From: a virus
Taxonomy: Duplodnaviria; Caudoviricetes
Strand: one strand, 5' to 3'
Virus record (IMG/VR): IMGVR_UViG_3300035517_000076
Location: 61,353 to 125,352 of that record
Length of the DNA stretch: 64,000 nucleotides
This document shows, one piece after another, positions 4,912-58,020 of this stretch (position 1 is the stretch's first letter; each line of letters begins with the position of its first letter). The notes below the pieces were generated by a model. That model had not been told where the DNA came from. It did not search any database and saw only the letters and a program-made list of their open reading frames with translations. The position numbers and the translations under genes are program-made.

Positions 4912-5883
4912 ATGACAGTTAAAGAAAAGATTGCTAACTTCCTGTTTTTAATGGTAGGTAAGCATAGCGAGTCACATGAATCAACAGTATTCCATCGTTA
5001 TATTGGCATGGGTACTGTAAAAGTATTGGCAGTAAATCCTACAGTAAAGGAAATCGAAAAGTTCATGGGATTTACTCCTAAAGCAGAACCTTCTTATTTC
5101 GGTATTGACACTACTGAGAATGTACATACTGCTCGTATTACATTTATTGTAAGAACTACTCCTGAAGATAATAATGGTATTGAAGTTACAAACTTCCTTA
5201 CCTTTAATATTCGTGGTTCTTTTGTTAAGGGTTCTCAGTCTGGTAAGTATCAAGTAATGGATGACTATGGTCGTGATGCTTGGGTTGATGAAGCAGTAAT
5301 GAAAGCTAAGGGTCAGATTCTTTATAAGAACGGTCCTGCAAACATTAATCTTGACTATCATCCTGTACTTAGAGGAGAGATTGCTTTGACTAACTTTTTG
5401 AGAGTTTATTTAGGTATTCCTAATCCTGCTAATTATATTAATGGCAATTGGGTAGAGAAGACTGGTGATGAACTTGCAGATGCTAAGTTAAAGTTGGAAT
5501 CCTTTAAGAAATACTTTAGCGGTGATGTATCGGAAATCAAGGAAGCTATTGCACTTCAACCTGAAAATAAAGTAACTGTAGCATTTGGTATTCGTACAGA
5601 TGAGCAAGGAAGAGAGTATCAGAGTCTTTATTCGGACACTGTTATTAAGTATGGTGCTCAAAATTATAATGCTGTTATAAGAGACATCAATGAACGTAAG
5701 GCAAATGGAGGTCTTTCTTCAACAGTATTTGATTTTACTCCTCTTCACGAGTACACTACTGCTCCTACTAACTTGGATTCCCCTGTTGATGTAGCAGATC
5801 CCTTTGGAACTCCTACTCCTACTACTGCTCCTATGGAAGCACCTTTAGGACCTGATGGATCTCCAAATGGCCTTCCGTGGTAA
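4912..5883 (+). CDS. putative single-stranded DNA-binding protein (crAss type)
   Basis: VLAVNPT motif and Pro/acidic tail ending LPW (an SSB-like tail). Lies between the Sak4-like ATPase and the primase. Confidence 0.6.
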   Translation: MTVKEKIANFLFLMVGKHSESHESTVFHRYIGMGTVKVLAVNPTVKEIEKFMGFTPKAEPSYFGIDTTENVHTARITFIVRTTPEDNNGIEVTNFLTFNIRGSFVKGSQSGKYQVMDDYGRDAWVDEAVMKAKGQILYKNGPANINLDYHPVLRGEIALTNFLRVYLGIPNPANYINGNWVEKTGDELADAKLKLESFKKYFSGDVSEIKEAIALQPENKVTVAFGIRTDEQGREYQSLYSDTVIKYGAQNYNAVIRDINERKANGGLSSTVFDFTPLHEYTTAPTNLDSPVDVADPFGTPTPTTAPMEAPLGPDGSPNGLPW

Positions 5884-5891
5884 CTTCTCAA

Positions 5892-5932
5892 GACTTCTTT
5901 GACTGAGTAATCAGTTAAAGAAGTTCTTTCTA
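5892..5932 (+). terminator. stem-loop / probable terminator
   Basis: GACTTCTTTGACTGA-GTAA-TCAGTTAAAGAAGTT (GNRA loop), then a T-rich tail. Confidence 0.6.
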
Positions 5933-5946
5933 TAAATCTATATGCT

Positions 5947-6963
5947 ATGATTATTGGTTCTACAACTGAAAGTATTTGCAAAGAAGATATTATTAAATAT
6001 ATTTCTGAAGCAGATATCTTAGGAAAATACTTAGGTATTTCCTCAATTCCTTGTGTGATTAACAGCCCTTTTAGAAGAGATAATAATCCTTCTTTTCTAC
6101 TGTACTCTCCTGACTTAAAGGCAGTAAACTATATTGACTTTGGTACTGGGGAAAGGGGAAACTGTATTCATTTGTTAATGAAATTATGGAATTTAGATAG
6201 AATATCAGTATATAAGAGAATACAAAAAGATTTAACCAAATTCAATACTATTGAATGTAAACAAATACAATCAAGAAAATGTACTGTTTCTGTACTTCCA
6301 CATGATACTCAGCTTAAATGCGAGATTAGGGAATGGAGAAAGTATGATATTGAATATTGGGAATCTTATGGTATTTCTATTGAGTGGCTTAAATACTGTG
6401 AGGTTTATCCAATTAAACATAAGATTATTATCAAGAATGGGAGAGAAATGTCTTTTGGTGTAGATAAATATGCTTATGCTTTTGTAGAAAGAAAAGAAGG
6501 AAAAACTACATACAAGCTGTATCAACCATATAATAAGTGTGGAAGAAAGTGGTGTAATAACCATGACAGAAGTGTACTTGGATTATGGACTAAACTACCT
6601 GAAACAGGTAAAGCAGTATGTGTCTGTTCCAGTGTGAAAGATGCTATCTGTCTAATGGCTAATATTCAAATGCCTTGTATATGTTTGCAAGGAGAAGGAT
6701 ATCCAATTTCAGATACAGCTATTAAAGAACTTAGAAAAAGATTTACTGATATATATGTCTGTTTAGATAACGATGAAACTGGACTACGAGATGCTGAAAA
6801 ACTAGCAGAAAAGCATCAACTAATTAACGTAGTTATTCCTCAATTTGAAGGAGGAAAAGACATTTCAGATTACTACAAACTATACAAACAGAAATCTTTT
6901 CGAGAGTTATTTATACAATTATTTATACAAACAAGAAACAATTGGTATGAAAAACATACCTAA
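5947..6963 (+). CDS. DNA primase (DnaG-like, TOPRIM)
   Basis: N-terminal SPFRRDNNPSF...DFGTG domain, SSVKD, and TOPRIM DNDETG...KDISD. Confidence 0.85.
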   Translation: MIIGSTTESICKEDIIKYISEADILGKYLGISSIPCVINSPFRRDNNPSFLLYSPDLKAVNYIDFGTGERGNCIHLLMKLWNLDRISVYKRIQKDLTKFNTIECKQIQSRKCTVSVLPHDTQLKCEIREWRKYDIEYWESYGISIEWLKYCEVYPIKHKIIIKNGREMSFGVDKYAYAFVERKEGKTTYKLYQPYNKCGRKWCNNHDRSVLGLWTKLPETGKAVCVCSSVKDAICLMANIQMPCICLQGEGYPISDTAIKELRKRFTDIYVCLDNDETGLRDAEKLAEKHQLINVVIPQFEGGKDISDYYKLYKQKSFRELFIQLFIQTRNNWYEKHT

Positions 6964-6995: not shown

Positions 6996-7634
6996 ATGGA
7001 AGAAAGAGTTATTACAATCGTTGATTCTGCTACAAACACTAAGTATCAGGTAACTACAAGTGCAACTACGTTTGGTGAACTTAAAGTAGATGCAGCAGCA
7101 GCAGGTGTTAATTATGAAGGTAAGGATTGGCTTGAGGGCATTACCAAAACTACTCCTGTTAATGATTCAGATTTACTTCCCACCGATGTAAACTGGAGAG
7201 GAACTACCACTAATAATCTTGTTTATATGCTTACTAATACAAACAAGAAGATTAAATCTGGTGCTAATTTATTCACTAGAGCAGAAGTAATACAGGCTAT
7301 TAAAGCTAATCACCTGGAGTATGCAGTTAAAACAAAGTTTGGAAAGAACTATACTAATTGCAGCACAGATGACTTGCGTTCTGTAATCAATGCTCCTAGT
7401 CCTTCTACTAGAACAGCACCTGCTTCTGTTCCTGCTTCTCCTGCAACTCCGTCTGATAGCGATAGGTCTTTGAAGGCTATTATTATTAGACACTTGCTTG
7501 CATTAAAAGAAGAACTTCCTGCTGATATTGTTAAGCAGGTGTTTGAGGGTAATACTGCTGCTTCTAAGTCTACTCTTCCTAAAACTACTAATGTAGAATT
7601 TTCGGATGACGACATTGATGCAATGTTTGATTGA
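6996..7634 (+). CDS. putative ubiquitin-like (beta-grasp) protein precursor with C-terminal extension
   Basis: Residues 1-89 show a beta-beta-alpha (TFGELK) pattern ending KKIKSG. Followed by a small helical domain, a Pro/Ala/Ser linker and an acidic tail. Directly upstream of E2-, JAB- and E1-like genes. Confidence 0.6.
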   Translation: MEERVITIVDSATNTKYQVTTSATTFGELKVDAAAAGVNYEGKDWLEGITKTTPVNDSDLLPTDVNWRGTTTNNLVYMLTNTNKKIKSGANLFTRAEVIQAIKANHLEYAVKTKFGKNYTNCSTDDLRSVINAPSPSTRTAPASVPASPATPSDSDRSLKAIIIRHLLALKEELPADIVKQVFEGNTAASKSTLPKTTNVEFSDDDIDAMFD

Positions 7635-7667
7635 TTGCCATTTTAAGTAATTATATTTGTATGTTTT

Positions 7668-7703
7668 AGGGGAAGGGATAACAATCCTTTCCCCTTTATT
7701 TTT
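7668..7703 (+). terminator. Rho-independent terminator
   Basis: AGGGGAAGGGAT-AACA-ATCCTTTCCCCT followed by TTATTTTT. Confidence 0.75.
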
Positions 7704-7711
7704 GAGTTATT

Positions 7712-8794
7712 ATGAAACCAATAGTTCAAGAAATTTATGACATTTTTAAGGATTACTATGGGGAAGAAAGAGTAGACATAAAGTACAATATTGTAGAGGA
7801 AAATGATAAAAACGTTAATCATTCTATAGTAAAGTTTAATTCAAATACTCATGGTACTTCTTATTATGCTAATTATGATTATTGTATATTGATACATTGG
7901 CCTAAAGTAACTATTACAAATGAACAAAACTTATCTATAGATATATATAATCTCTACTGTGCTGTTTATTTAACTGATACAGGACTTCTTGGTGCCGGAC
8001 CTTTGTTTACCAAATCTTCTTATACATCAAAGCAATGGTCAAGACATTATGTTCATAGTCATGTTCCCGTTCTAAACTATGATATGCCTTCTACATTTAA
8101 GAAAAGCTGTTTAGGTACAGGTCCTTTAGTTCATACAATAAATTTACTTTCCGCTCAGAATGATTTGGACAGATGGAGATTATTTGTTTGGGAATTAGAT
8201 AAATATGTTCATGTAGAATCTTTATCCGGTGTTCCTTACATTAACCTTTCTTCTGTACTTAATGCTTCAGAAAGAGTAGATTACATTAAAGAGGTTATTC
8301 CAACAAACACTTTCAGATGTTCTAATGATAATAATAAAGAACTGCTTAAAAGCTTCTTTTATTATTTAATCATGTCTAATAAGTTTGTTTTTTGTTTTAA
8401 GAATGGCCAGTATTACTTTGGTATGTCTACTACAGAGTTCTTTACTCTAATAAGTAATTTATTTATTGATTGGGTTAATAAAGATTATGAGAAAAGATCT
8501 TATTTTGCTGTTACTCAATTAGTCAAAAAAGTAATTATTTCAGGCAAAATTTATGAACCTGATGATGTAAATAGATACTCAATGAAAGATTTTGTCGGAG
8601 AGTATTTATTTATGTTTAAAGATAAGAAAGTTTGTTTGGAAAACTTAGATAATGACTTTGAAGGAGAAAGAAACTATTTTAGAATGGTTAATTCTATCTT
8701 AGCAGGATATTTGTATTATAAAATTCTTAGATTCGTAAATTACTATTATGGAAATAAAGCTGTTTCCCCTAATAAAGAAATCATCCTCTTATAA
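7712..8794 (+). CDS. putative prokaryotic E2-like (UBC-fold) conjugating enzyme
   Basis: HSH(115-117)...SCLG(C133), resembling the E2 HPN/HPH...CLG signature, plus gene context. Confidence 0.55.
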   Translation: MKPIVQEIYDIFKDYYGEERVDIKYNIVEENDKNVNHSIVKFNSNTHGTSYYANYDYCILIHWPKVTITNEQNLSIDIYNLYCAVYLTDTGLLGAGPLFTKSSYTSKQWSRHYVHSHVPVLNYDMPSTFKKSCLGTGPLVHTINLLSAQNDLDRWRLFVWELDKYVHVESLSGVPYINLSSVLNASERVDYIKEVIPTNTFRCSNDNNKELLKSFFYYLIMSNKFVFCFKNGQYYFGMSTTEFFTLISNLFIDWVNKDYEKRSYFAVTQLVKKVIISGKIYEPDDVNRYSMKDFVGEYLFMFKDKKVCLENLDNDFEGERNYFRMVNSILAGYLYYKILRFVNYYYGNKAVSPNKEIILL

Positions 8795-9926
8795 GATTAT
8801 TGTTACTTCTGCTCTTGAAAATAAGATTAGATTTCTGTGTGAGAAACTTCCTACTAAGGAATATTCAGGCACATTGTTTTATAAGATTTCAGGAACTTTT
8901 GAAAACAATGATTTAGTTGTTGAGGCTGTAGATTTCTTTCTTCAAGACATTGGTGTTAGTGCATATACCGAATTTAAAAATGATGTAAATCTTGCTTCTT
9001 ATATAGTAGAACATGATTTACTTGATTGTTATATGGGTTTAATGCACTCTCATGATGTAATGCCCACTTTCTTCTCTGGCACAGATACTTCAACTTTACA
9101 GTCAGAGGGATCTGAAGCTAATCATTTCGTATCTTTAATTGTAAATAATGCTGGTGAATATTCAGCAGCTATTACAAGAAAAGTACACCAGAAAGGAGAG
9201 GGAAAGTATAAGTGTGACTATAATTCTTTTGAGAATGTTAATAAAACATTTGATGGAGAAGATTACATAGTCGAAAATAAGATTGTTGAATACTTTGATT
9301 TAACAATAGAAAAACAGGAAGCAAGTAAAGCTGAAGAATCTGAACTCAATGAACGCTATGAGTTCTTACTAAAGAGTAATACATCCTTCCTCAACTCTAC
9401 TAAGACTCCTTCCGAGTTCTCCAAACCTGCTACTAAGATTACTGGTTTTGATGAAGATTTTGTAACCCCTGACTATACTCAATGGTTTGAAAACTATCAG
9501 AAGAAGTATGGTAGAAAACAGCTTAGTATTTGGGAATATGATGAAATTCCAATTACAAAGACTTTAGCAAACATTAGTCAAGCATTAATTAAAAGTCAAG
9601 TATCTCAAATCATTACAGGCAATATATTCTCTAGTTATAATACTAAGCTTGACTTAGATAAGTGGGGAATAAATATGGCTAAAGCCTATGATACAAGATT
9701 TGCAGGTAAAGATGGTTGGGATAATTTTATTGTATATGCTGACTCTTTAGTTGAATTTCTTGCAGGTGAAGCTGTACCTACTTCATATCTGGATCCTTAT
9801 AGTGAAAGTACATACTATAAAACCGAAGCTTGGGTAGGAGCAGTTATACGAGAATTAAAGAAGTACAAGTCTAATAAGTATATGAATTACTATATTAAAA
9901 GTATTAAACGATGGCTGACAATGTAA
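8748..9926 (+). CDS. JAB/MPN+ (JAMM) metallopeptidase
   Basis: E38...H100-S-H102-x7-S110-x2-D113 (HSHDVMPTFFSGTD), a complete JAMM motif. Confidence 0.85.
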   Translation: MEIKLFPLIKKSSSYKIIVTSALENKIRFLCEKLPTKEYSGTLFYKISGTFENNDLVVEAVDFFLQDIGVSAYTEFKNDVNLASYIVEHDLLDCYMGLMHSHDVMPTFFSGTDTSTLQSEGSEANHFVSLIVNNAGEYSAAITRKVHQKGEGKYKCDYNSFENVNKTFDGEDYIVENKIVEYFDLTIEKQEASKAEESELNERYEFLLKSNTSFLNSTKTPSEFSKPATKITGFDEDFVTPDYTQWFENYQKKYGRKQLSIWEYDEIPITKTLANISQALIKSQVSQIITGNIFSSYNTKLDLDKWGINMAKAYDTRFAGKDGWDNFIVYADSLVEFLAGEAVPTSYLDPYSESTYYKTEAWVGAVIRELKKYKSNKYMNYYIKSIKRWLTM

Positions 9927-10900
9927 ATATAAATGTAGATGATGTATTGGCAACTTTAAATATTGAAAATACAGAAAATGCTACTAATGTAGACAATGTT
10001 GTTGAAGAAATAGTAAATTCTTCTAATAATTCTGTTAATAATTCCGACTCTTCTTCTACTGCTCCTCAAGAAGTTGAACAATTAGTGAGTGAAGATTCCT
10101 ATAATAGTATAATTGGAGAACCGGAAGAAGAAAAGAGGAGTAAGAAAAAGAAAGAAAATAAGAATACTATTCCTCAAAATATTATAGATTTAGTTAAAGC
10201 CAATACAGCAAGATTTAGTAGTGCTTCTTGGTATGAAGCAGTACAAAAACAAAGTATTATTCTTGCAGGTGTTGGAGGAATAGGCAGTTGGACTACTTTT
10301 CTTCTTTCAAGACTTGATCCAAAACAAATGTTTATCTATGATGATGACAAAGTTGAAGATGTAAATCTTGCAGGACAATTGTTTAGTAGTCAAGATGTAG
10401 GTAAGAATAAAGTAGATTGTATGGCTACGTTTGTTTCTTCCTATTCCATATTTAATAAAATCTTCTGTGTATCAAACAGATATATTGCTGGAGACCCCAC
10501 TTCAAACATAATGATTTGTGGTTTTGATAATATGAATGCAAGAAAGACATTCTTCTCAAGTTGGTTTGATCATGTCATGAACCTTCGAGAGTCTATGCGT
10601 AGAGAATGCTTGTTTATTGATGGGAGGTTAAATGCCTATGAATTTCAAGTATTTGCTATTTGTGGAGATGATGTGAATGGGATTAATACATATTCAGACA
10701 ACTATCTATTTGATGATGCTGAATCTGAAGGAGAAGTATGTAGCTTTAAACAAACTACCTATTGTGCTTCTATGATTGCAAGTATTATAACCAATATATT
10801 TGTAAACTTTGTAAATAATCTGGTACATGATATTCCATTTGATGTTCCTTTCAAGACATATTATAATGCCAATATGATGTACTTTAAAACAGAACATTAA
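9911..10900 (+). CDS. ThiF/MoeB/E1-like adenylating enzyme
   Basis: GVGGIG, DDDKVEDVNLAGQ, GKNK, GFDNMNAR, FIDGR; candidate catalytic C277 (EVCS). Confidence 0.9.
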   Translation: MADNVNINVDDVLATLNIENTENATNVDNVVEEIVNSSNNSVNNSDSSSTAPQEVEQLVSEDSYNSIIGEPEEEKRSKKKKENKNTIPQNIIDLVKANTARFSSASWYEAVQKQSIILAGVGGIGSWTTFLLSRLDPKQMFIYDDDKVEDVNLAGQLFSSQDVGKNKVDCMATFVSSYSIFNKIFCVSNRYIAGDPTSNIMICGFDNMNARKTFFSSWFDHVMNLRESMRRECLFIDGRLNAYEFQVFAICGDDVNGINTYSDNYLFDDAESEGEVCSFKQTTYCASMIASIITNIFVNFVNNLVHDIPFDVPFKTYYNANMMYFKTEH

Positions 10901-11649
10901 TGGCTGCTAATGTATATTACATTAAATACTATTGGGACTTTGGATTGAATAGATATTCCTATACTTCCTCCTCTGTTGATAATAATATGAATGATAAAAT
11001 GTTTCAGGTCAATATAGATAATAATCATCATGTTGTCTGTCCTGTATTTCTAATCACAGAAGTATTTGAACTGTTGAAAGAATATTATCTATATCATGAT
11101 AAAACTGAACTGCATACTATTAATTTCCCGGCAGGTATTAGTACAGGAGGATTCTTTGGAGTACGGTCCACCACTTCTTTATTTAAGAAAGCTAATTCTG
11201 GGGATTCTATACTTACAAAAATAAGATTAAAAGATTTAACTTATTATTGTAGTAAAGGACTTATACTTGATGAACATAAAAATATACTTATGATGTCTTT
11301 ATGTGACTTTAATTTTGATTATGGTAAAGACAAATATTGGAGTTTTAGAGACCATACTAAGTTTAATAAGTGTATTTTTAGAATCAATAGAAAAGTATTC
11401 TGTTTCAATGATCCTGTTTCTAAAATTCTAAAGAGTGGAAAATTACTATCTGATGTAGCTGGAATTGTAAATCCTTTTAATCGAGAAAGATTATTTGGTA
11501 CTTATGATAGTGATATTTCTAATATTAGTATAGAGATTGGAGATTTTAATGATGTAGTTGTTACTCCAGAATTACCTACAGAAGTAGATGGTATAAACAA
11601 TAGTATTAACAAACTTCTTGTAGATAATGTAGATAAAATATTGAAATAG
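10900..11649 (+). CDS. hypothetical protein coupled to the E1-like gene
   Basis: 249 aa; start overlaps the E1 stop; ends in TAG. Confidence 0.7.
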   Translation: MAANVYYIKYYWDFGLNRYSYTSSSVDNNMNDKMFQVNIDNNHHVVCPVFLITEVFELLKEYYLYHDKTELHTINFPAGISTGGFFGVRSTTSLFKKANSGDSILTKIRLKDLTYYCSKGLILDEHKNILMMSLCDFNFDYGKDKYWSFRDHTKFNKCIFRINRKVFCFNDPVSKILKSGKLLSDVAGIVNPFNRERLFGTYDSDISNISIEIGDFNDVVVTPELPTEVDGINNSINKLLVDNVDKILK

Positions 11650-13807: not shown

Positions 13808-14871
13808 ATGATAGTAATTAAACGTGATAAAACACAAGAAGAGTTTGATTATAAGAAAGTAATCAAGGCCATGCAAAAAGCTTTTGATTCTTGTAATCAT
13901 TCCTACACTCCCACTTTGAAACTCTTTACCGATTCTTTGCTCAATTCCGGCAAAGATTCTATGACGGTGGAAGAAATTCAAGATGAGGTTATCAAGTTCT
14001 TAATTGATAATAAGCTTTACGATGTAGTTAAGTCTTATATTATCTATAAAGAAAAAAGAACCAATATCAGGGAGTTTGTAAAGAAGAAGAAAGAGTTTAT
14101 CAATAAATATAAAGTGTCTTCAAATACAGCTAATGCTACTATAGATGACAACAGTAATGTATGTAACAAAAACATTGGTATTCTAAACGCTGAAATTCAT
14201 AAAGAGGATAATATTGAAATCAGTAGAGGAATGCTGGTGGATAAGCTTAGAGAACTTTATCCAGATTTTGATAGCAAGCAATATATTAAAGATTTGAATC
14301 ATCATATTATTTATAAACATGATGAATCTTCTTTTGCCGGGGCTATTGCTCCCTATTGTTGCAGTATTACCATGTATCCATTCTTACTTAAAGGAATCAA
14401 AGGAATAGGAGGATTAAGTGCAAGCCCAAAAAATCTCGATTCATTCTGTGGTATGTATATTAATCTTATCTTTGCTACTTCAGCCATGTTTGCTGGAGCT
14501 ATTGCTACCTCAGAGTTCTTTGTTTACTTTGACTATTTTAGTAGGAAAGAGTGGGGAGATGAATACTTTTTGAAACAAGATGCTATCATTACTACAGAAC
14601 ATAGCAATAAAAAGAAAACTATATTAAGTCAAATTCATCAGCATTTTCAGCAGATTATTTATTCAATAAATCAACCTGCTGCTGCTAGAGGAATGCAATC
14701 AGCTTTTGTTAATTTCTCATATTTTGATAAAGCATTTTTTGATGGAATGTTCGGTAACTTTTACTTCCCTGACGGTACTCAACCACAATGGGAATCAGTA
14801 AAATGGTTACAACAAACATTTATGAAATGGTTCAATGAAGAAAGATTAAAAACGATAATTACTTTCCCCGT
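13808..14871 (+). CDS. nrdD: anaerobic ribonucleoside-triphosphate reductase, exon 1 (ATP cone)
   Basis: N-terminal VIKRD ATP cone, PYCCS, NQPAAARG; ends ITFP-GT at the intron 5' splice site. Confidence 0.9.
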
Positions 14872-15701
<830 letters not shown>

Positions 15702-16842
15702 AGAATCGTTTGCACTAGTATATCAAAATGGAGAATTTCTTGATAAAGAATCAGCACAATTTGTAGCTGAAGAATATGCAAGAGGACATAGTTTCTTTAC
15801 TTACATTAGTGATACAGTAGATTCATTAAGTTCGTGTTGTAGATTAAAGAATATGATACAAACAAAAGAATTTAATTTTACTAATGGTAATATGGGTATT
15901 CAAACGGGAAGTAAGTCTGTTATTACTCTTAATCTTAATAGAATAATTCAAGATTGGTATAAAGAAACTACAGATCCAGAAGACCCGGAACCTTATCTTC
16001 CAGATGGTAGAGCTAATAATATTAGTCTATCAGAAAAATGCAGAGCTATTTGGGAACCTTCTTTAAAGAAATACATTTGTAATATTCTTGAAAGAGTGTA
16101 TAAGTATCATACAGCCTATAATGAATTGTTGTGGGATATGTATAATGCTAATCTTCTCCCTGTTTACTCAGCTGGATTTATTGATTTAAATAAACAATAT
16201 CTAACAATAGGACTTAACGGATTAAATCAAGCAGCAGAATTTATTGGTATTAAGTGTACAGATAATGAATATTATAGTAGATTTTGTTCATTTATTTTCA
16301 GTACGATAAAAGAACAGAATCAACTACATAAAACCAAAAGAACCACATACAACACAGAATGTGTACCTGCCGAGTCATTGGCACTCAAAAACTATAATTG
16401 GGATTCTAAAGATAATTATTGGACGCCTTCTGATACTAATCTATATGCTTCCTATATCTATAAACCTAATGAAGATTTATCTATATTAGAGAAGATGAGA
16501 TTGCATGGAAAGAATTATATTGGAGAGTTCTTGGATGGAGGTGCAGCAGCTCATTTAAATTTAGAAGAGCATTTATCTGCATCTCAATATATGAAATTAT
16601 TATACTATGCAGCTAATGTAGGCTGTCAGTATTTTACTTTCAATATTCCTAATAGTGAATGTGATGACTGTGGTTTTATTACAAAAGTTCCAGTAACTAA
16701 ATGTCCTAAGTGTCATAGTGATAATATTACACTTTGGGATAGGGTAATTGGATATTTAACAAAGATAAAGAACTGGTCTGATGGAAGACAAAAAGAACAG
16801 AAGACCAGAGTATATAGTAGTAAATCTAATATAGAATTATGA
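15702..16842 (+). CDS. nrdD: anaerobic ribonucleoside-triphosphate reductase, exon 2
   Basis: SSCCRL catalytic loop upstream of the track's 15853 start, CxxC...CxxC zinc site, glycyl-radical RVIGY. Confidence 0.9.
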
Positions 16843-26048: not shown

Positions 26049-29000
26049 ATGGATTACTGTTACCTACCAACAAGAAAGGACAGTTTAATAGCTAAAGTCT
26101 ATGCTGATTTTCGTGGAGAAAACGAAAAAGAAAAAAGTATAGGCAGATATGTGGCTACTCTAAGAGGAATGTATGACGAAGCTGTTAGAAAAGCTACACC
26201 TCCTGGAGAAACTCCACAACTTCCTGATTGGGACAACATGAGTATAGTAGAAACTTTGCGTACACTTCAAAGATTTAGAGCAGATCTTAAAAGTGGAAAG
26301 AAGAACTTCTTAAAGAAAGTTGATTCTGCACTTCAAAATGCCATCAATACAGGAAAGGGAATGAGGCGATTACAAAAAGCTTATACTCCAACTACTAGAG
26401 AACTTCGTATTAGTAGAATAACTACAGATGTTTCAAAAGAGATTGATCTTATTCAAGAGAAATTCCCTAATCTATCAAGAGCACAGATAGGAATGGGTGT
26501 AAAAACAGCTGATGGAACTACTAAGTTTGGTGCACTAAATATTTATGATAAACTATTTAATAAGTATTTAGCTAAGGCTGAACGATACGAACATTTAGGA
26601 GAAGAAGAAAAAGCTAAAGAGTATTATAAAATTCTTGATAACTGGGAATCTCTAGTTACTTTGTCTATGCTTAGACTAAGAGACATTGAACAATTAAAGA
26701 TTGGTATTGATGGATCTTATGCAGCAGAGACTGATGAGAATGATTATAATGATACTGACGTAGAGGACTTAGTCAATCTTGAAGAGATGGAGAAAGACGG
26801 CTGGATGGAAGTAGCTGAATCTATGAGTGCTTATGCCAGTATAGGCAAACAAGTTCGTAGAGTATTAGCTATGATACCGGCAGTAGATGAGAATGGCAAA
26901 GTTATTACTGATGATTTAGGAGAACCTATAAATGCAGATCCTGTTAAAGTTCATCAGAATTTAGTAGCTATTACTCGTGGTTGTACTAGTTCTATTACAA
27001 TGATAAAGGCTATTACAGATGCTGCATCTTATAACAAGATGATGTTAAAAGTACTCGAAGTTCTCTGCCCAGGCATAGTTGAACAAAGACCTGATGGTAC
27101 TATCTATATGGACAAGTCTTTTGATGATGCTATGTCAAGAATGTTTAAGAAGTTTCTTGCAGAAAAGCAGATTCCTAATGCTGAAAGATATAAATCATTT
27201 CAAGATTATGAAAACTTTCTTGAACAAAAGATTGCAAGCATTAATAGTCAAATAGTAGAACCTTCAGAAAATGCTACCAAGGAAGAAAGGGAAGCTATTG
27301 AAGAACAAAAAAGTATGTATGCTGAAGATATTAAATTATATAACGAGTTATTAGAAGAAACTAAGGCCGTTGAACAAGTGTATATGGCTAAAGCAGATAA
27401 TGCTATGTCTATGCGCTCAGCATTCTTTCATGATTTGTATTCAAATTTTGCTCCCCTGACTACTCTTGAAAAAGTTACTAATGCAGTTACTGGTATTTCA
27501 AAGTGGGCTGTTAGACTATTAAATAGAAGATCAAATGCCTCTCTTTATCAAAATGCCAAATCACACATGACTATAGGATATAACTATAAAACAAGTGGAT
27601 TTGAAATGCACGAATTTATCTATGATGAAGAGGGTCATATAGATTTTAATGGTCTTAATGCTATACAATATTCTATATTAAATGTAGTAGGTAAAAAAGA
27701 TTTTACTCAGCTTTATAGTAATGCGTATCTAAAAATACAACAAGAACTTAAAGAAGCTCAAAAGATTGTAGCTACTACAACAGAAGAACGAATAGCAAAA
27801 GAGAAGAAAATAGAAGAAATAAAGAAGAGACTTAGTACAGAAGCTGGTGAATTTAATTATAAGAATATTGATGCTATTAAAAGAATATTGAGAGCTTTTG
27901 GTATAGATTCTAAAGATATGAATCTTACTGCTCAGGCTATTTATAGTAATAGAGCAGCACGTATAGAATTTCAAAAAGCTGCAACAAATTTCAATCAGCA
28001 TTTTATTGAAACTGCTTCTGTACAAAGAGCAAAAGCTAATGCTATAGAATATGAAAAAGATTCTGAAGGTAACAATGTTTTAGACGAACGTGGTCAGCCA
28101 ATTATAAGTAAAGATAATCATGGTGGAATAGTCTTCTCTAAAAAATATACTCCTACAATGGAATATTATTTTGGAAAGAAGATTAGTAGTAGTCCATCTA
28201 ATTATACAGAACTTGAAGAAGCTTTAATGAAGTTTACAAGTTTAGTTGCAGAGAATGACCCTAATATTAAACTTGAAGCTAGAGTTCCATATATGGATAA
28301 GCATGGTAATCCTACCAGACTTTCCAGTGATGTAAATCCTTCTTATTTAGGAGATATGGTTCAGCAAATTCAAGGTATTGTTAAGGCAGGAAATAAAACC
28401 TTGCTTAAAGAGTATCTTGAGAATAACTTCTTTAAATGTAGTATGTTTGCTGACATTCTTAGAATTGAAAGAAGAGAAGTTACTAAAATAGTAGGAGGAA
28501 AGGAAGTAAAAGTTCCTACCTATGTTCCTGTTTATGGTAATATTAGAAACTATTGGTTAAGAAAACTCTATGAACAATGCTTAGATAAGGATGCTTCTCT
28601 AACTATGCCAGATGGTTTTGCTGCAAATGTTAGTTGGAATAGACTTATTGGAGATAATAAGAATGCAGAGAATGCGCAGCGTTTTGAAGATTATTCTATG
28701 AAACAACACGCTCTTGCAATGCTTACTGCCTATGCTCAGAATGCAGAAAATAGTTATGCAGATTATCCTGTATTTATTCTTGGCGATAGTGGGGTAATGA
28801 AGTTCATGAGAGGACCTATTCTTAGTAGAGAAGAAATTATTGATGAACTTGTAGACAATGTGATTAATCAAGAGCTTACTAGATCTAGATTAGCATCTGG
28901 AACTAAGAGAATACTTGAAGATCAGAATATGCCTATTATTGATAATTTCTGCAAGAATGCCAATAAGTTTTCTATACTTCCCTTCTTCAATGAAAACTAT

Positions 29001-32000
29001 GAAATCAAAGTAGTAGACAAACTAATTAATGGTACTCAAGTAGATCCTTATGTAGCTATTGTTGAGAAAGGAACTGATAACATAGTTACACGAGATGAAA
29101 TCAAAAGAGTTATTCAAGAAAACTTTGAACAAAAAGAACAAGAATATTATGACTTCATAAGTAGTAAAGGACTTCTAAAAGAAGTTAATGGCAAGTATCT
29201 TTATATTGAAGATAGTGTTGCAAAACGAATGACTAAGTATATCAAAATAATAGATCAGCAAGACCCGGTTACTAAGAGATTCTTTAAAGGCGAAGCTAAA
29301 GATGTTTCTGAAGTAATTGCCTTAGTTAAAAGAGAACAGGGCAGAGAAATTACTGAAGAAGAAGCTAAAGCTATTAGTAAGGAAGACATTAGAAAAATGG
29401 TTGCTAGAGAATTAGTTAAAGAGATGTACTATAACACAAGATTTGCTACTATAGAACAAATTCAATTAATGACTACTGACCCAAGCTTCTATAAGAATGT
29501 AGTTGATTTACAGAAGCGTTATAAAGAAATTCATGCTCCAGGAAAAAAACTTGATGTTACTGCATGGGACAAGTTTAATCATAGACTGTTTACTGATCGT
29601 ACAGTAAGACTTGGAGATGGAAATGTGGACTATAAACGTGACTATAATGAAAGAGTTGTTTACTTTGATGATATTTCTATTCCCGGTTCTGAAGTAGGAG
29701 TTAAACGAGGATCTCTTGAATCTGAATTTACTTCTGTTATGGAATCAATATTTGGAAAAGATTCAGCTGAATATAAGGAATATGAAAAAGGTTGTACTCT
29801 AACAGATGGTCAAGGTTATAGAACACTTAAAGGCTTTCGTAGAGTAATGGGAATGGCAGGAAAGTGGACAGAAGAACACGAAGCTGTATATAAGAAAATC
29901 TTACAGTATAGTGATAAACTTAAAAACAGAACTGTTTCTGATGAAGAGAAGCAGTCTTATATTAAGGAAATTGTTAAACTGTCTACAGTAATGCAGCCTG
30001 TTAAACCTTATCTTTATAGTAAAGAAAGAATAAATGGATTCAATACTAGAAAAGATATTACTGATGAACATAATCAGAAAATCTCAGAGCAGGCAGCTCC
30101 AAACTACATTGATATTCCTGTACAACACAAGTATGCTGAAGTAATACTTATTCCAGAACTTCTTCCCGAAGGTTCTCGTCTTAGACAGCTTGCTGAGCTT
30201 ATGGATAGAGATGATGAGGGAATTAGAACTAAGAATGGTATTGCAGTAACTAAGTATGGTATAGACTTAGTATGTTCTACTAAAGCTGTTAAAGTAGGTG
30301 GATTTGGATCTATTGCATTTGACTTTCAAACTAATGATGAAGGTTTATATGTAGATGCTTCAGGCAATGTTATTAAAGATGCTTCTGGAAATAATCCTAA
30401 AACTAGAGATGATCAAAAACGAAATAGTGAGTTTAGAAAGCTTGCTGTTCCTGTAAATAATGTTACATTTGCTAAACAATTTGACAAAGCTTATGTACAT
30501 AAACTTAGTTATGAAGATTATCGTATTCAAACTAATGTACCTAATCACATCAATCATGATGCTTTGTTTGGTACACAAGTAAGAAAACTAGTTTTAGCAC
30601 ATCTTAAAACAGATGAAGGTTATGCAGGTTATCGAAGATATTTATCTAAAATAATTGAAGGAGAATCCGAAGCAGTTGGTGTTAATTTAACTGGAGAAAT
30701 AGGAGGAGAAAAGACATTACTTGATGGTAATGGATTAATGACTTTCTATAATCAGTTGATTTGTGCTAACATTCTTGAAAGTTATGAAAGCTTTAAGAAA
30801 GCTGTAGCAACTCTTCCTTCTACAAGTAGGTATCTAATTCAACAAGCTATTAGTAGTTCTAGAGAATCTGAGGATAATATCTTAGCTTATTGTCTTACAG
30901 GTGATGCTGATTTTCTTCTTCCACTCTTTGAAAACTCCACCGCACATGATGCCTCTGCTTCTCTGTTTTCTATATTTAAGAAAGCAGTAAACAAGCAAAG
31001 AATTTCTGGTGGTGCTGCTGTTCAAGCTTCCTCTTGGGGTATTACTAAAGTTGAACATGGTTCTGACTATGGTAATCTTGAATATCATGGAGAAGTTGCA
31101 AGAGATGAAAATGGTAAAGTTATCTATGATTCTAATGGAAAACCTAAGTATGACAATATTCTTTATGGCGATTGTGAAATTCCTTTTAATCTACATTATT
31201 CTTATGTAGACAAGAGAGGAAATGTACGAGAAGTAAAATTAAACTTTGAAGATTATTGTAATCCTGATGGTACTCTTAAAGAGTCAGGAAGACGTATAGA
31301 TATAAGAGCTATTGCTGAAGGTGATTCAAGAGTTGTAGATCCAAATACACCATTAGGAGGATCTATTGTAAAAGAAGCTCTTATAGAAAAACATTTCCCA
31401 GGAATACTTGATATAATTGCATATCGTATTCCTTCAGAATCTGCTTATTCAATGCTGAATCTTAGAGTAAAAAGATTTAGTAAACCTACTGAAGGTGGTA
31501 CTATTAAAGTTCCTCCGCAGGGTACTGTACAAGCAGGATTTGACTTTGATATTGACAAGCTTTATTTAATGCGAAAAGAATTTCGTTTAAGTAATAAAAG
31601 ATTATCAAAAGAACAAAGAAGAAGAGTATGGCAATCATTTTGGAGTGATCCTAAAAATAAAGACATTGTTACAGCTCTTAAAGATGCTAAGAAGAGTGAG
31701 GAAAGCTTACTACCAATGATTGATAAATTACTTGATAGTATAGGAGTAACTGATGAAGAAGATACTGAATCAGGAAACTCAACATCACTACTTAACTATT
31801 GGGAAGCTGCTGGACTTGATCCTAAAATGTTGCCTGTTTTTAGGGATTTAATTTTAAACTATGGATTTGGTTTTGATGAGTATGACTTGGATGCTCCTGT
31901 GAATGCTTTTGATAAAACTATTAATATTCCTATATTCCAGAAGGAGGGAGTTTATAGTGTTTCTACTAATGTTGTTAGTAGTACCATAAATAGACCTTCT

Positions 32001-35000
32001 TACTATGAAGGAGATGTTACTCCAGAGCCTAATACTATAATGGTATTTGGTAGTAATGTTGAAGGAAGACATGGTAAGGGAGCAGCGTTATTCGCTAAAA
32101 AGAATTTTGGTGCTCGTTATGGTATAGGTGAAGGCCTTACTGGAAATGCTTATGCTCTTCCAACAAAAGATTTGAGAGTAAAGGAAAATAATAGTCTAAG
32201 AAGTATTTCAAAGGAAAAGATTATTGAGAGTATTAAGAAACTATATGACACTGCCGAACAGCATCCTGACAAACAATTTAAAGTTGCTTACAGAAATACT
32301 GAAACAGAATCTTTAAATGGTTATACAGGAATTGAGATGATTGAAATGTTTAAGGCAGCTGGTAATATACCTAGTAATATAGTCTTTAGCAAAGAATGGG
32401 TAGATACTGGAGCTTTTGATGTTGAGTCTAATGTCTATTCTTCTGAAGTATTCAATACTCTCTCTTCTGATCTCGTTGAAACTGAGGAATATGAAAAGCC
32501 TTGGAAGGAAGATCCAGACCGTACTAATAGAGCGGTGAAGATTTATTTGAAGGGAGAAAGAGAAAAGGGGTACTTTGAGGTGGTGAAAGACGAAGAGAGA
32601 GAATATTACTCTGTTCATTTTAAACCTGCCAATAAGAATAATCCTAAGTCTTTTACTAAGAATGAAAAGGCTATTCTCTTTCAAGCTGTTGCAGATATTC
32701 TTCCTGCTGGTTCTAAGATTTCTACCCACGGGACTATTACTAGAGGTGGAGTTGCTGGTCTTGAAAGATTCAGAACTTTACAAAGTCAAACAGGTAGATT
32801 TATAGATACTGGAGAAGTTCGTACAGTCAATAGGAATACTAATTTCATGGAAGGTAATTCTAGAATTGCTAGAAATAATATGTTAATTCATATTATTAGG
32901 CAGCGTTTGATGGATAAAGAAACTATGAAAGAAAGATTCACTCCCGGTGGTTTTGATCATCCAAAAGCTGCTGCTCGTAGAATGAGACAACTAGCATTTG
33001 GAGAATATGAAATTACTGAGAAGCCTATTCCAACTAGTAAAGAAGATCCTGATTGGTCTGAAAAAGACAAAATTATTGAAGAAAGAAAACAAAATTTCCA
33101 AAAAAGAAAGGAACTTATAGACAAAGACAGTAAGGAAAAGCCTGATCCTCTTCCTGAATATGATTATAGTGATCCTATGACTATGTTGATATTTAATCAA
33201 CAGAATCAAGTTGCAGGAAAACTAATTGGTATTTATGCTAATCAGAATGCTAATACGGCACTAACTTCTTTAGTAAAGGAGTATAAAACCAGATTCCCTA
33301 TTGCATTTGGTAATCATATTTCTGATGGTGGATTATCAAACTTGATGAGTGAAAATGCTTCAAGAGCTACTGCTGAATTATTGGCTTCTTCTGTAGATGC
33401 AGTAAAAGACCCTGTACTTAATTACCTCAACTTAAATATTACAACAGCTAATGATGGAGCAGTATTGGCCCGTCTTGGTTATTCTTTTGAAGAAATTGGT
33501 GCTTTATTTAATCAGCCAATTATCAAAGATTTATGTGAGTATATTCAAAATACAGGAGTTACTTTTGATGAAGCCGTAGCCCAGATGAAAAGAGAATACG
33601 CTTCTTCTGTTAATTCAAATGTGATGAGTTCATTAGATAGACAACTTAGATTCAGTACTGAAGCTCTTGAGAGTTTTATTATTGAAGGAAAGCAAGATCA
33701 TTCTAAATACTCTGATCTATTTAAGGCTTATCAGTTGGAGATTCTCAATCTGTATAATGGTATTCATCAGGTAGGAGAAGAAGTTAATGACTTCATTAAT
33801 GCTACTAAATTCTCTGCTTCCAATTCTGTCCAGTCTACATTTGGAAAGATGATTGTTCAAGGAAACAAAGCTAATAAGTATATTAAAGGAGCTACCGATG
33901 CAAGAAGTAAAACTATCCTTGTATTCAAAGATCATAAGAGTGAGATTGTAAAAGACGATAGACATGGTGGAGTTATCAGAAAAGAAATTGGTAAAGCCGC
34001 TATCGAAAGACCATTATTAGGAGATTATAAATCTTATATTAAGCGTGTTTGTCTAAACAATCCATTTGCTTATGAGCAGTGTATGTATGATTGTAACTAC
34101 TATGCTGTTCAAGCTATTGCTCAAGATAAATTCCCTTATTTTACTGAATTATATGAGGAAATGAGAAGTTGTCTTGGTATAGTTTCTACTGGATCCAATG
34201 GAGATGTTATTGATCTTGCTCATGCTGATTTTCAGAATTTTATTCTGAGCTATCTTCCTTATAGTGTATTTAATGGAGAGTCTGAGATGGAATACCGTGT
34301 CGTAGTAGAAAATGGAAAAAATACTGCTATTGAATACGGAAGTCTTGCAGATGACAGCAGTCTTTTTGCTGATGTATCAAATAGACAATTCTATCTAAAC
34401 TACTTTCCTGATATGCTACTTAATTTGAAAAAGACTCTTAATAAAGCTCTTCATGGCGAGTCTGTACAAAGCGAAGTTCGTATTGGTGCAGTAAAGCTTA
34501 CTAGAGAAGAAGCTTTAGACCTTGAGAAACTTTTAAGTAGAATTGAGTATTCTAATATTAAATATACAAATGAAGAAGGAAAGCAAGTAACCAGAAGAGC
34601 ATTGGCTATTAATACAAGAGATTTATTGAAAGATGAATTGGCAGGACTACAATCAGAATTTGAAGCAGTAGCTAATGCTACTAATCCAATATCTAATCAA
34701 GTAGTATCTGATTTGTTTATTTATGATTTCTTTGAAAATGGCCAAAGCATGAATGGTAAATCTTTTAATATGCTTATTCCAAAGATGTTTAAAGCTAAAT
34801 TCATTATAGGACAATACGAGGATGAAACTACGGGTACTTTGAGAACAGTTCGTTATAGAGACATACTCAAAGCAGTAAATAGTGGTTCTGTACTTACTGT
34901 TAATCGTGGAAATACTATTAACAGATTCCTTGAAGAATTTTCTTTAAATCACACTGACCTTCCTGGTGTATGTAAAACTTTTGATCTAAGTAATCTATCT

Positions 35001-41700: not shown

Positions 41701-41706
41701 TCATAA
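35716..41706 (+). CDS. giant virion cargo / RNAP-associated protein, 1996 aa (TAG read as Gln)
   Basis: Track fragments 36274, 36604, 38386, 38671, 38914, 40759 and 41398 share one frame. All end in TAG except the last (TAA). N-terminal MAGTCQIKP..LNEEGEPT, zincin-like EEAGH, hydrophobic C-terminal helices. Confidence 0.85.
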
Positions 41707-50700: not shown

Positions 50701-52076
50701 GACTATCCTAGTAATTCACTTCCCATGTGTTTACCAACATTTGACCAGCTATAGTCTTCTACATCATCAGGATTTTGAAAAGCGTTTAAACCAGTTTCAT
50801 CATAATCATATTTAACTCCAAATAGATTTTCTAGCTACTTTTTGACTTTTTCATCCATATTTGGATCAATTTTATGTGCAATTAAGTCTGCTATCTATCC
50901 ACCAAGTAATATTCCAGTTAGTCCTGTATTTCCATCAAATCCCCATCCTCTTTTTGATATTTCATTAGCATACTGAGAATAAGCATTGTTATTCATGAAA
51001 TAACCAAAAGCATCACCAGCACCTCCAAGTCCTTCAGGCATATCTCCTCTATAATTTCCAATAGTAACTGCATAAAGAAGAAAGTTTGCAAGACCTACTG
51101 CACAACCTTGAGCAGCATAAAGAGAAGAAGTAAGACCTGTCATAAAAGAACCAATACCATGACCATAAGCTTCTCCAACACTCATCTTCTTATAGTAAAT
51201 CTTCTATACAGAGTTCTATAATTTAAGATTAGCTTGATATAAAGCTTCATCATCACCACCCTTAACATTAGCCAAGGAGTTTGAATAATACTGATAAGCA
51301 GCTTGATAATCATAAAGAAGATCTTTCCAATCTTGTTCAGTTAATTGTCTTTGCTTATCATTTTTATATCTTTTATAAAAGCCTGAGTTTTCCTCTACCA
51401 TAGACTTAATAGCCTACAAGTCTTCTGTTTCTGCATCTGGATGCTGTTTATAATATTCAATTATATTATTATTTCTAGCCTCTTCTATACCCTACTAAAC
51501 ACCTGTAGTCTTATTGTTTAATTGTCCCTGTCTTTCGTATGCTCTTTCTGTAGTACTTACTAACATATCAGATGATTGTGATTGAGGATCCATAGATAAT
51601 CCCTATAACCAGCTAAACCATTTAGATACATTAGAACCCTAATCAACAGAAACATCATTTCCTTCAGCTGCGTGCTATTGTAGCATTTTTATCTACTCAC
51701 TTCTTTCATAGGCATCTTGTGAAAGGTGTTGTTGTGGAGAAAGAGCATTATCAATAGTTTTATCTACAATATCACCAACATCATTTTCATCTCGATAACC
51801 TACTGAATTACTTCTAGTAGCATTAACAGATGGTGCAAAATCTGAAAGTTTCTTTTCTCCATTAAAAACTTTTAGTTTATCTTCAATAGAAACATTATTA
51901 TAAGCATTAGGATTATCTTTTGCTACAGTAGTATTAAACTTATATTTAATAAATGTTTGTCTTTTGGTTTCATCGTCTACATCAGCAAGTTCATCTTTAT
52001 ACTGTTTTTCCCAAGTATCATAATCTTGCTTTGAAACACCTTTTAAACCAAATATATTATTAACATCATTACCCAT
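41766..52076 (-). CDS. giant polyvalent virion/ejection protein, 3436 aa (TAG read as Gln)
   Basis: Twelve track fragments from 43053 to 52076 lie in one frame. Starts MGNDVNNIFG, ends FIHCGC-TAA; contains a zincin HEAIH motif. Gaps were spot-checked, not read in full. Confidence 0.8.
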
Positions 52077-57903: not shown

Positions 57904-57932
57904 AATAGAAAATATTTTATTGTTTAATGTTG

Positions 57933-57963
57933 CAAATATACTATGCTTTTTTATAGGCACAAA
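57933..57963 (-). promoter_or_regulatory. Bacteroidetes primary-sigma promoter (-33 TTTG / -7 TATATTTG)
   Basis: On the minus strand: TTTG (57963-57960), 19-nt spacer, TATATTTG (57940-57933), upstream of ATG 57903. Confidence 0.7.
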
Positions 57964-57971
57964 CTATTTAA

Positions 57972-58020
57972 ATAAAAAACAATCCTCATATAAACAGAAT
58001 TGCTTATACAAGGATTGTTT
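57972..58020 (-). terminator. Rho-independent terminator
   Basis: Minus strand AAACAATCCTTGTATAAGCA...TGTTTATATGAGGATTGTTT followed by TTTATT. Confidence 0.7.

Follow-up and report, generated by a model that had tools for sequence, protein, structure and literature searches.

A five-gene cassette predicted to encode ubiquitin-like conjugation in the replication module of a crAss-like phage

The five-gene cassette and its encoded proteins

We analyzed a 64,000-nucleotide (nt) stretch of viral DNA (hereafter the window; bases 61353-125352 of the 125,352-bp IMG/VR record IMGVR_UViG_3300035517_000076, which is rated complete). Five tightly packed plus-strand open reading frames (ORFs) within positions 6996-11649 of the window probably encode a phage-owned pathway for the activation and conjugation of a ubiquitin-like protein (Ubl), as predicted from the genes. 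They are a Ubl precursor gene (6996-7634; 212 amino acids, aa), an E2-like gene (7712-8794; 360 aa), a JAB/JAMM metallopeptidase gene (8748-9926; 392 aa), a gene for an E1-like adenylating enzyme (9911-10900; 329 aa), and a fifth gene (10900-11649; 249 aa). The E2-like and JAB genes overlap by 47 nt, the JAB and E1 genes by 16 nt, and the E1 stop codon and the start codon of the fifth gene by 1 nt. Because the start and stop codons of the E2-like, JAB, E1, and fifth genes overlap, we regard the enzyme genes and the fifth gene as linked, and the fifth gene is assigned to the cassette because its start overlaps the E1 stop. The original prediction, made from the sequence alone, had described four adjacent genes here and missed the ORF at 10900-11649, which lies within the same interval, so that the count is five. 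Its ORFs, their overlaps, and its motif positions were all verified, namely K84-K-I-K-S-G89 in the Ubl precursor, H115-S-H117-x15-C133-L-G in the E2-like protein, E38/H100/H102/S110/D113 in JAB, and G120-V-G-G-I-G125 and C277 in E1.

The N-terminal part of the Ubl precursor adopts a beta-grasp fold. The AlphaFold model, built from an alignment of 120 homologues, has a predicted local distance difference test (pLDDT) score above 90 for aa 1-80 and below 50 for aa 85-91, and the chain runs strand-strand-helix-strand...strand before becoming disordered at aa 85-91. Every listed Foldseek match in the PDB is a ubiquitin-superfold domain (probability ~1, E 5e-3 to 3e-2), including ISG15, ubiquitin variants, UBX, DIX, MoaD, SUMO-3, and NEDD8. 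All rows of the VIA-align search (50/50) are beta-grasp proteins with Z of 6.0-7.5 and, in all rows but one, a root-mean-square deviation (rmsd) of 2.1-3.8 over 69-81 residues, and bacterial BilA (8tyz_B, Z 6.0) is among these matches. The model, Foldseek, and VIA-align all agree on the beta-grasp fold (aa 1-86) that had been expected for this protein from its sequence. No named family was found for it in Pfam, NCBIfam, PHROG, or PADLOC.

The beta-grasp core (aa 1-83; the fold call spans aa 1-86) is followed by a flexible tail (aa 84-89, KKIKSG), a three-helix domain (aa 95-132) that may be a candidate HeH/SAP-like domain, a variable Pro/Ala/Ser linker, and an acidic C-terminal helix (aa 204-211). 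The tail, K84-x-x-x-S88-G89, shows the strongest conservation anywhere in the protein (entropy 0.63); G89 is invariant in 120/120 homologues, and S88 is present in 114 of the 120. In the same alignment, the columns right after G89 are half gaps and indel-prone, and the true C-terminal residue is not conserved. The three-helix domain and the acidic C-terminal motif, F-S-x-x-[DE]-I-D-x-M-F, are themselves conserved. A remote Ubl homologue, gp53 of Flavobacterium phage FpV4 (hhalign probability 97.9, E 5e-13), retains K-S-G as well as a downstream K-N-Y-T domain. Because a beta-grasp domain is joined to an invariant internal Gly tail and further downstream domains, we read the 212-aa protein as a precursor that would need to be cut after Gly89, whose codon (nt 7260-7262, plus strand) marks the proposed cleavage and activation site.

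The E1-like enzyme consists of a low-complexity, variable N-terminus (aa 1-85) and a single ThiF-type adenylation domain (aa ~99-329). It matches Pfam ThiF with E 4.8e-15 and 55.8 bits, above the cut-off of 28.1, and PHROG 15670 with E 5e-36. Its best PDB matches are MccB, UBA5, and PaaA, which are single-domain homodimeric E1-like enzymes, and its PADLOC matches are Cap2 'E1-E2' (1.2e-8) and BilD (7.9e-8, 29 bits). The invariant residues are R101 (in R101-F-S), the GxGGxG motif at 120-125 (nt 10268-10285), D144/D146, N152, K167, D206, R211, and C277 (nt 10739-10741); among these, D206 is a candidate Mg-binding Asp and C277 a candidate catalytic Cys. The assignment of this protein as a ThiF/E1 with GVGGIG and a candidate C277, as first put forward, holds with the match above the Pfam cut-off and the invariance of GxGGxG, D206, and C277. 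The N-terminal extension (9911-10165, aa 1-85) is rich in Asn, Ser, and Glu, is highly variable, and ranges from 10 to 190 residues across homologues; we know of no such extension in cellular ThiF-type enzymes.

We also considered a predicted complex of E1 (aa 85-329) with Ubl (aa 1-89), a pairing that the original prediction had suggested for modelling. The complex scored 0.41, compared with 0.00 for the best of three controls, and was graded 'weak support'; in the benchmark of this score, the mark is reached by 58/80 solved complexes and 2/110 mismatched pairs, and the range up to 0.60 holds just 7 of the 80 solved complexes yet both of the passing mismatches. The prediction runs agree in at least 91% of the contacts, and the pLDDT of the partner is at least 87. 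The pass may reflect mere likeness of the model to solved E1-Ubl complexes.

The JAB protein carries an intact JAMM signature comprising E38 (nt 8859-8861), H100-x-H102 (nt 9045-9053), S110 (nt 9075-9077), and D113 (nt 9084-9086), which is kept across 18 divergent homologues, with all five residues conserved in 17 full-length ones. Three profile libraries concur on JAB, each with a sub-threshold or weak match: Pfam Prok-JAB (E 0.0016, 18.7 bits, under the cut-off of 25), PADLOC JAB (E 3.3e-4), and the PDB, where the JAB family profile matches the SAMP-processing archaeal enzyme JAMM1 5lda (E 0.0085). The motif, called perfect in the original prediction, is thus intact, conserved in the alignment, and aligned to JAMM1 5lda over HxH...S..D. 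The homologue in crAss001, gp77, is labelled 'metalloprotease' in GenBank. The JAB protein also has a conserved C-terminal domain of ~110 aa (aa ~285-392) with Q-L-x-T-G-S and R-F motifs and invariant R317/F318, which is reached through a variable linker (the region 9330-9923 corresponds to aa ~195-392). We found no family match for this domain, to which the Ubl precursor or E1 may dock.

The E2-like protein has an N-terminal UBC-type domain (aa 1-185) and a C-terminal domain (aa ~200-350), the last ~170 residues being separate. The UBC fold runs from helix 1 through a four-strand meander and an active-site loop to helices 2-3. The model of the E2-like protein (30-sequence alignment, pLDDT 82.6) contains a helix, four strands, a long loop, and two helices in its first 185 residues, and this order of elements is exactly that of the UBC fold. 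In a wide VIA-align search with the N-domain, the rows are mostly E2, UEV, and RWD domains; Tsg101 UEV (Z 5.7), an E2 of L. major (Leishmania; Z 5.5), Ubc8 (Z 5.4), and Ubc9 (Z 5.3) are found at the top together with Ubc13 and RWD domains, and the E2 domain of Cap2 (7to3_A) has Z 4.7 here and 4.7-4.8 over this and the second list. In a second VIA-align list, nearly all 50 rows are E2-type chains, headed by UbcH8 (Z 5.8, rmsd 3.9, 130 of 150 residues aligned). The E2/UEV/RWD matches of both lists have Z 3.8-5.8, with 106-142 residues aligned and rmsd 3.3-5.1, and the tool itself warns that Z below 8 may reflect a common arrangement. We accept the UBC-type reading because the match lists are homogeneous and cover nearly the full E2 domain, with 120-140 of ~150 E2 residues in the best structural matches; these modest Z values support a similarity of fold and leave homology unproven.

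Across the E2-like homologues (81/81), residues N70, E71, Y113, H115, S116, H117, C133, G135, P138, E169, and S170 are invariant. E2s carry the HPN motif and the catalytic Cys in the loop that leads from strand 4 to helix 2. The phage protein has H115-S-H117 (nt 8054-8062) and Cys133 (nt 8108-8110) in this loop, and Cys133 sits 5 residues before helix 2; HSH stands in place of HPN, 16-18 residues upstream of Cys133 compared with ~8. Neither the window protein nor 30 homologues matched Pfam (UQ_con, Prok-E2_A-E) or the PADLOC BilB and Cap2 E2 models at E <= 1, no named family was found in NCBIfam or PHROG, PF14460 (Prok-E2_D) gave no candidate in the phage's own genome, and the family profile searched against PDB sequences returned a chance match to YabO alone (E 0.2). 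Foldseek against the PDB with the full two-domain model gave no match at E <= 1e-3, and the UBC-type fold surfaced with VIA-align only. In the Atlas, a cluster in which 15% of the members are Prok-E2_D scored 0.89, under the tool's bar of 0.9, and stray F-box-like_2 matches were seen in three homologues (best E 0.0058). For the C-terminal domain (~170 residues), no convincing fold match was found. Of the UBC fold expected for the ORF at 7712, the fold itself, from the model and VIA-align, and the invariance of Cys133 stood, while membership in an E2 sequence family did not.

The fifth protein (10900-11649) is homologous to gp75 of crAss001 (hhalign probability 99.9, E 6.5e-35) and is a candidate adaptor, E3-like factor, or target. 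Its gene is fast-evolving, since tblastn at 1e-4 detects it in no more than 16 of 82 loci (80 from IMG/VR, retrieved with the E2-like profile, together with crAss001 and bajarodcaudo virus), and a gene at the same position is present in crAss001, bajarodcaudo virus, FpV4, and DAC15. The protein has 0 matches in Pfam, NCBIfam, PHROG, and PADLOC. Atlas leads to NleG and Baculo_RING clusters were discarded, as their best scores (0.78-0.84) are at noise level, and homology to FpV4 gp49 was not established, the hhalign match being local to 26 residues with a probability of 3.9%.

Distribution, expression layout, and genomic setting

The order primase-Ubl-E2-JAB-E1 is invariant in the 82 loci wherever the contig is long enough. 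In 50,697 GenBank phage records, the E2-like, JAB, and E1 genes are each found in 74 records with an identical breakdown by organism and host, comprising 45 Crassvirales-type phages and 29 Flavobacterium psychrophilum phages. The Ubl was found by tblastn in 45 records with the same non-Flavobacterium breakdown, the Ubl of FpV4 was recovered with a profile, and Ubl homologues are confined to genomes that also have E1, E2-like, and JAB genes. The carriers of the cassette are Steigviridae (crAss001, DAC15) and Flavobacterium FpV-type phages. Co-inheritance of the genes, on which the original prediction had staked its reading, is seen in the fixed order of the 82 loci and in the shared 74 records of the E2-like, JAB, and E1 genes.

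At 50% identity, the E2-like family forms 3,063 clusters among 1.84 billion proteins. A scan of 185,579 species genomes, which relied on one usable peptide pattern, gave 3 matches, all on contigs of metagenome-assembled genomes (MAGs). A cellular reservoir of the family was considered and set aside, as at least one of the three MAG contigs coincides with an IMG/VR phage contig (94,451 bp). We also searched the whole 125,352-bp genome for ThiG, MoaE, and rhodanese and found none at E <= 1, while control genomes do match; the statement that sulfur-transfer client genes are lacking, first made for the window, is borne out and extends to the entire record.

A terminator-like hairpin (7668-7695, plus strand) lies between the Ubl and E2-like genes, with a 12-bp GC-rich stem followed by the T-run TTTATTTTT and a folding energy of -19.7 kcal/mol. 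A hairpin with a T-run is present in 63/63 scorable Ubl-E2 gaps, including that of crAss001; the stem sequences of these loci are unrelated, and the energies range from -11.8 to -25.2 kcal/mol. Because the hairpin stands between the Ubl gene and the enzyme genes, we infer that more of the modifier is made than of the enzymes. Such hairpin punctuation may be a general trait of the replication operon. The 8-mer TATATTTG (TAnnTTTG, a Bacteroidota -7-like word), which is found upstream of the E2-like gene and of the gene at 11760, is not enriched, with 8 occurrences found and 7.6 expected.

The cassette genes have no in-frame TAG, which fits expression before any late recoding without proving it. 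All genes through a 3214-aa ORF resembling RNA polymerase (26049-35693), the cassette included, read in the standard code. Several large late genes in the region 35716-62951 are open only when TAG is taken as sense (tried as Gln), at 35716-41706 on the plus strand and at 41766-52076, 53206-58011, and 58060-62208 on the minus strand, with 35-111 in-frame TAG codons per gene. No tRNA genes were found in the 64-kb window.

The window has a GC content of ~0.32, and its strand polarity flips near 42 kb. At the protein level, its relatives are Crassvirales of the family Steigviridae (crAss001, DAC15/17, Kolpuevirus, and cr106_1 among others), with identities of only 30-52%. Megablast of the 4.65-kb interval against the 50,697 phage records gave 0 matches at the nucleotide level, and the closest E2-like relative has 39% identity, indicating that the phage is divergent. 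A Toprim/DnaG-type primase gene (5947-6963) is the upstream neighbor of the cassette, and the downstream neighbors encode a DUF1064 protein, a PD-(D/E)XK-like exonuclease, and an anaerobic ribonucleotide reductase (NrdD). A second terminator-like hairpin with a 15-bp stem (5892-5925) lies between a 323-aa ORF (4912-5883) and the primase gene. The NrdD gene (13808-16842) is split, with the ATP-cone and NRDD profile positions 8-204 in 13808-14890 and NRDD positions 275-560 in 15853-16842. Between the two parts there is an HNH/NUMOD4 homing-endonuclease ORF (15007-15543), and Rfam matches a group I intron at 15532-15650 with 23.2 bits (E 0.0022), which is below the gathering score of 50. The interruption is probably an intron with a homing endonuclease.

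Proposed pathway and alternative explanations

The analysis shows which folds and catalytic motifs are encoded, that the motifs are invariant, and that the genes stay linked in a fixed order, and the following order of events would connect these features. The Ubl gene would be transcribed in excess, with the hairpin attenuating read-through into the enzyme genes. As BilC does with BilA and BubCD with BubAB, JAB would cut the 212-aa precursor after Ser88-Gly89, and this cut would free an 89-aa beta-grasp modifier and a separate fragment with the three-helix domain and the acidic tail. In the Bil system, JAB pre-processes its Ubl and exposes Gly (Chambers et al., PMC10557695), and in Bub, the Ubl is part of a fusion protein from which the peptidase frees it (Ye et al. 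2024, PMC11601596). The single-domain and probably homodimeric E1 would then adenylate Gly89, load the Ubl on Cys277, and hand it to Cys133 of the E2-like protein. The C-terminal domain of the E2-like protein, the fifth protein, or both could choose the target, and in the replication phase the Ubl would be joined to a lysine on a protein of either the host or the phage. JAB may also reverse the mark. Early expression of the pathway and an action on host defence or replication proteins, both put forward in the original prediction, are conjectural.

More tentatively, we put forward as a possibility that falls somewhat short of an expectation that Steigviridae and Flavobacterium FpV-type phages run a self-contained, virus-owned Ubl tagging pathway during replication. 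The modifier would be made as an N-terminal fusion to a second module (the three-helix domain and an acidic tip like that of single-stranded DNA-binding protein, SSB), the E2 would represent an unrecognized, phage-restricted UBC family with a C-terminal targeting domain, and the fast-evolving fifth protein would be an E3-like adaptor or a target in an arms race with the host. Eukaryotic ubiquitin is likewise made fused to ribosomal proteins.

Several points weigh against a conjugation pathway of this kind. The E2 assignment is its weakest part, as it is made at the level of fold (Z 5-6) with no match to any E2 family in sequence, and H115, H117, and C133 could form a metal site instead. Of the apparently complete system in the original prediction, the Ubl, JAB, and E1 parts stand, and the identity of the E2 depends on modest-Z fold matches with no sequence-family match. 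In MccB and other E1-like enzymes, the Arg of the NLxRQ region contacts ATP. The corresponding region of the phage E1 reads N-L-[SA]-G-Q, with an invariant Gly155 opposite the Arg of MccB, and we count it against a fully canonical adenylation site, although the other invariant basic residues R101, R134, K167, and R211 might compensate for the missing Arg. The candidate C277 is placed on the crossover loop by its spacing. The end of the modifier is Ser-Gly, not Gly-Gly, and is internal, so its activity would hang on the putative cleavage.

The best surviving alternative is that the cassette acts on Ubl-type immunity of the host (Bil, Bub, or CBASS Cap2/Cap3) and does not tag proteins with the phage Ubl; JAB would strip host Ubl or CD-NTase conjugates off proteins of the phage or the host, and the phage Ubl, E1, and E2 would be decoys or competitors. 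The profiles nearest to the phage E1 and JAB are indeed CBASS Cap2 'E1-E2', BilD, and CBASS JAB, the bacterial Ubl systems are anti-phage (PMC10557695, PMC11601596), and a Ubl/JAB/E1/E2 operon (class 6d) is present in Bacteroides thetaiotaomicron (Iyer et al. 2006, PMC1779556). However, these profile matches are weak (18-32 bits) and restricted to generic catalytic cores, and a deconjugase alone would suffice for such a role. The invariance of the activation Gly, the E1 Cys, and the E2-like Cys in all relatives argues for the forward reaction, and we consider action on host immunity unlikely.

Activation that is not followed by conjugation appears rather improbable as well. Here the Ubl, E1, and JAB would form a carrier of the ThiS/MoaD-ThiF/MoeB or PdtFGH type, in which an acyl-adenylate or thiocarboxylate feeds a small-molecule, nucleotide, or DNA modification made in the replication module, and the 'E2-like' protein would be an accessory with an unrelated UBC fold or a metal-binding role. 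Such a carrier is at odds with the lack of ThiG, MoaE, and rhodanese in the 125-kb genome and of a fused rhodanese domain in E1, and also with the strict co-inheritance and translational coupling of a UBC-type protein whose Cys is invariant; moreover, the Ubl fold matches are mainly of the ubiquitin type, with MoaD present and not at the top. In favor of a carrier, bacteria commonly have sets of JAB, E1, and ThiS/MoaD-like proteins that do not conjugate (classes 4a-4e; Iyer et al. 2006, PMC1779556), the best single-sequence matches of E1 are ThiF-, MccB-, PaaA-, and TcdA-type enzymes, the neighboring genes belong to DNA metabolism (primase, PD-(D/E)XK exonuclease, NrdD), and the E2 call is weak.

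Beta-grasp domains serve as docking modules in Rad23 and UBX proteins, and many eukaryotic Ubl domains are not conjugated. A 212-aa protein that is never cleaved, with its beta-grasp domain as a docking module on a replisome-associated protein, Gly89 as a hinge, and the enzymes acting elsewhere, would agree with the conservation of the three-helix domain and the acidic, SSB-like C-terminal motif and with the position of the Ubl gene directly after the primase gene in every locus, but it is the least probable explanation, since a hinge has no need of an invariant Ser-Gly behind a conserved basic tail, the Ubl gene never occurs without E1, E2, and JAB genes in the phage records, and no other substrate ending in Gly is encoded nearby on which the enzymes could act.

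Relation to known ubiquitin-like systems

The crAss-like phages are among the most abundant phage families of the human gut. To our knowledge, prokaryotic ubiquitin-type conjugation (CBASS Cap2/Cap3, Bil, Bub) has so far been characterized only as a bacterial weapon against phages. With the predicted cassette, a complete Ubl chemistry would belong to the virus and sit among the replication genes of abundant gut phages. In a full-text literature search, we found no paper describing the cassette in Crassvirales; a 2026 virome preprint mentions in passing a gut-phage family resembling UBA5. In GenBank, the E1 of crAss001 (gp76) is named 'thiamine biosynthesis protein, ThiF', one 2024 record has the label 'E1 enzyme family protein', and the crAss001 and DAC15 records give the name 'hypothetical protein' or 'thiamine biosynthesis protein' to four or all five of the genes. 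Because crAss001 and DAC15 are cultured and carry the cassette, they allow direct tests of cleavage, thioesters, conjugation, and targets. If confirmed, the pathway would provide a new E2 family, a Ubl-fusion precursor design outside eukaryotes, and a way to study the control that crAss-like phages exert over host or replisome proteins.

We compared the cassette with the known systems. The Bil system (BilABCD; PMC10557695, PMC11601596) likewise consists of four separate proteins in the order Ubl-E2-JAB-E1, its Ubl has a C-terminal extension that is removed by the JAB of the operon to expose Gly (as predicted for the phage), and it uses Cys on E1 and E2 with no recognizable E3. However, the E1 of Bil, BilD, is built of several domains (IAD-AAD-CYS), whereas that of the phage has a single adenylation domain of ~240 aa, which the BilD profile matches weakly (29 bits). 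BilB has a conserved His after the Cys, whereas the phage HSH lies 16-18 residues before it, and the E2-like protein of the phage carries an extra C-terminal domain of 170 aa. The extension of the phage Ubl is a conserved 120-aa module and not a short propeptide, and the phage cassette has a fifth gene and is encoded by a lytic-type phage instead of a cell.

Type I Bub (BubAB, BubCD, BubE; formerly 6E.1; PMC11601596) shares with the cassette a single-domain E1 of homodimer type (probable for the phage) with its catalytic residue on the crossover loop (a candidate placement for the phage C277), a Ubl that forms the N-terminal part of a larger protein and is released by the JAB peptidase of the operon (as predicted for the phage), and an extra component beside the Ubl, E2, JAB, and E1 genes. 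In contrast to the four separate ORFs of the phage, Bub of types I and II fuses Ubl to E2 and JAB (or E2) to E1. Bub forms Tyr/Ser oxyester intermediates, whereas Cys is invariant at both candidate sites of the phage enzymes, and Bub carries a DUF6527 serine protease, whereas DUF6527 was not matched in the Pfam scan of the phage proteins.

CBASS type II, with Cap2 (an E1-E2 fusion) and Cap3 (a JAB), resembles the cassette in using E1, E2, and JAB chemistry in the conflict between phage and bacterium, and it provides the best PADLOC matches of the phage E1 (Cap2) and JAB. CBASS has no Ubl, the C-terminus of the CD-NTase being the substrate, and its E1-E2 fusion, CD-NTase, and effector are all absent from the phage cassette. 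The tail-assembly proteins TAPI and TAPK of lambdoid and T1 phages (class 5; Iyer et al. 2006, PMC1779556) include a phage-encoded beta-grasp protein with a conserved Gly at the Ubl end, a further C-terminal domain after the Gly, and an adjacent JAB predicted to cut there. They lack E1 and E2 and belong to the tail module, whereas the phage cassette has both enzymes and lies in the replication module.

The ThiS/MoaD-ThiF/MoeB and PRTRC systems have a small ThiF-type E1 and a beta-grasp protein ending in Gly, as in the cassette, whereas the client and donor genes of the ThiS/MoaD type (ThiG, MoaE, rhodanese) are not in the phage genome. The link to PRTRC-type operons drawn in the original prediction was not upheld, as TIGR03736 (PRTRC_ThiF) is the only PRTRC model matched and scores 28.8 bits against a cut-off of 144.75. 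The cassette thus falls outside PRTRC, Bil, Bub, and CBASS alike. Because the known systems differ from it in their E1, in the arrangement of His and Cys, and in their gene fusions, we interpret it as a phage-borne variant of prokaryotic Ubl conjugation with E2-like and Ubl families of its own.

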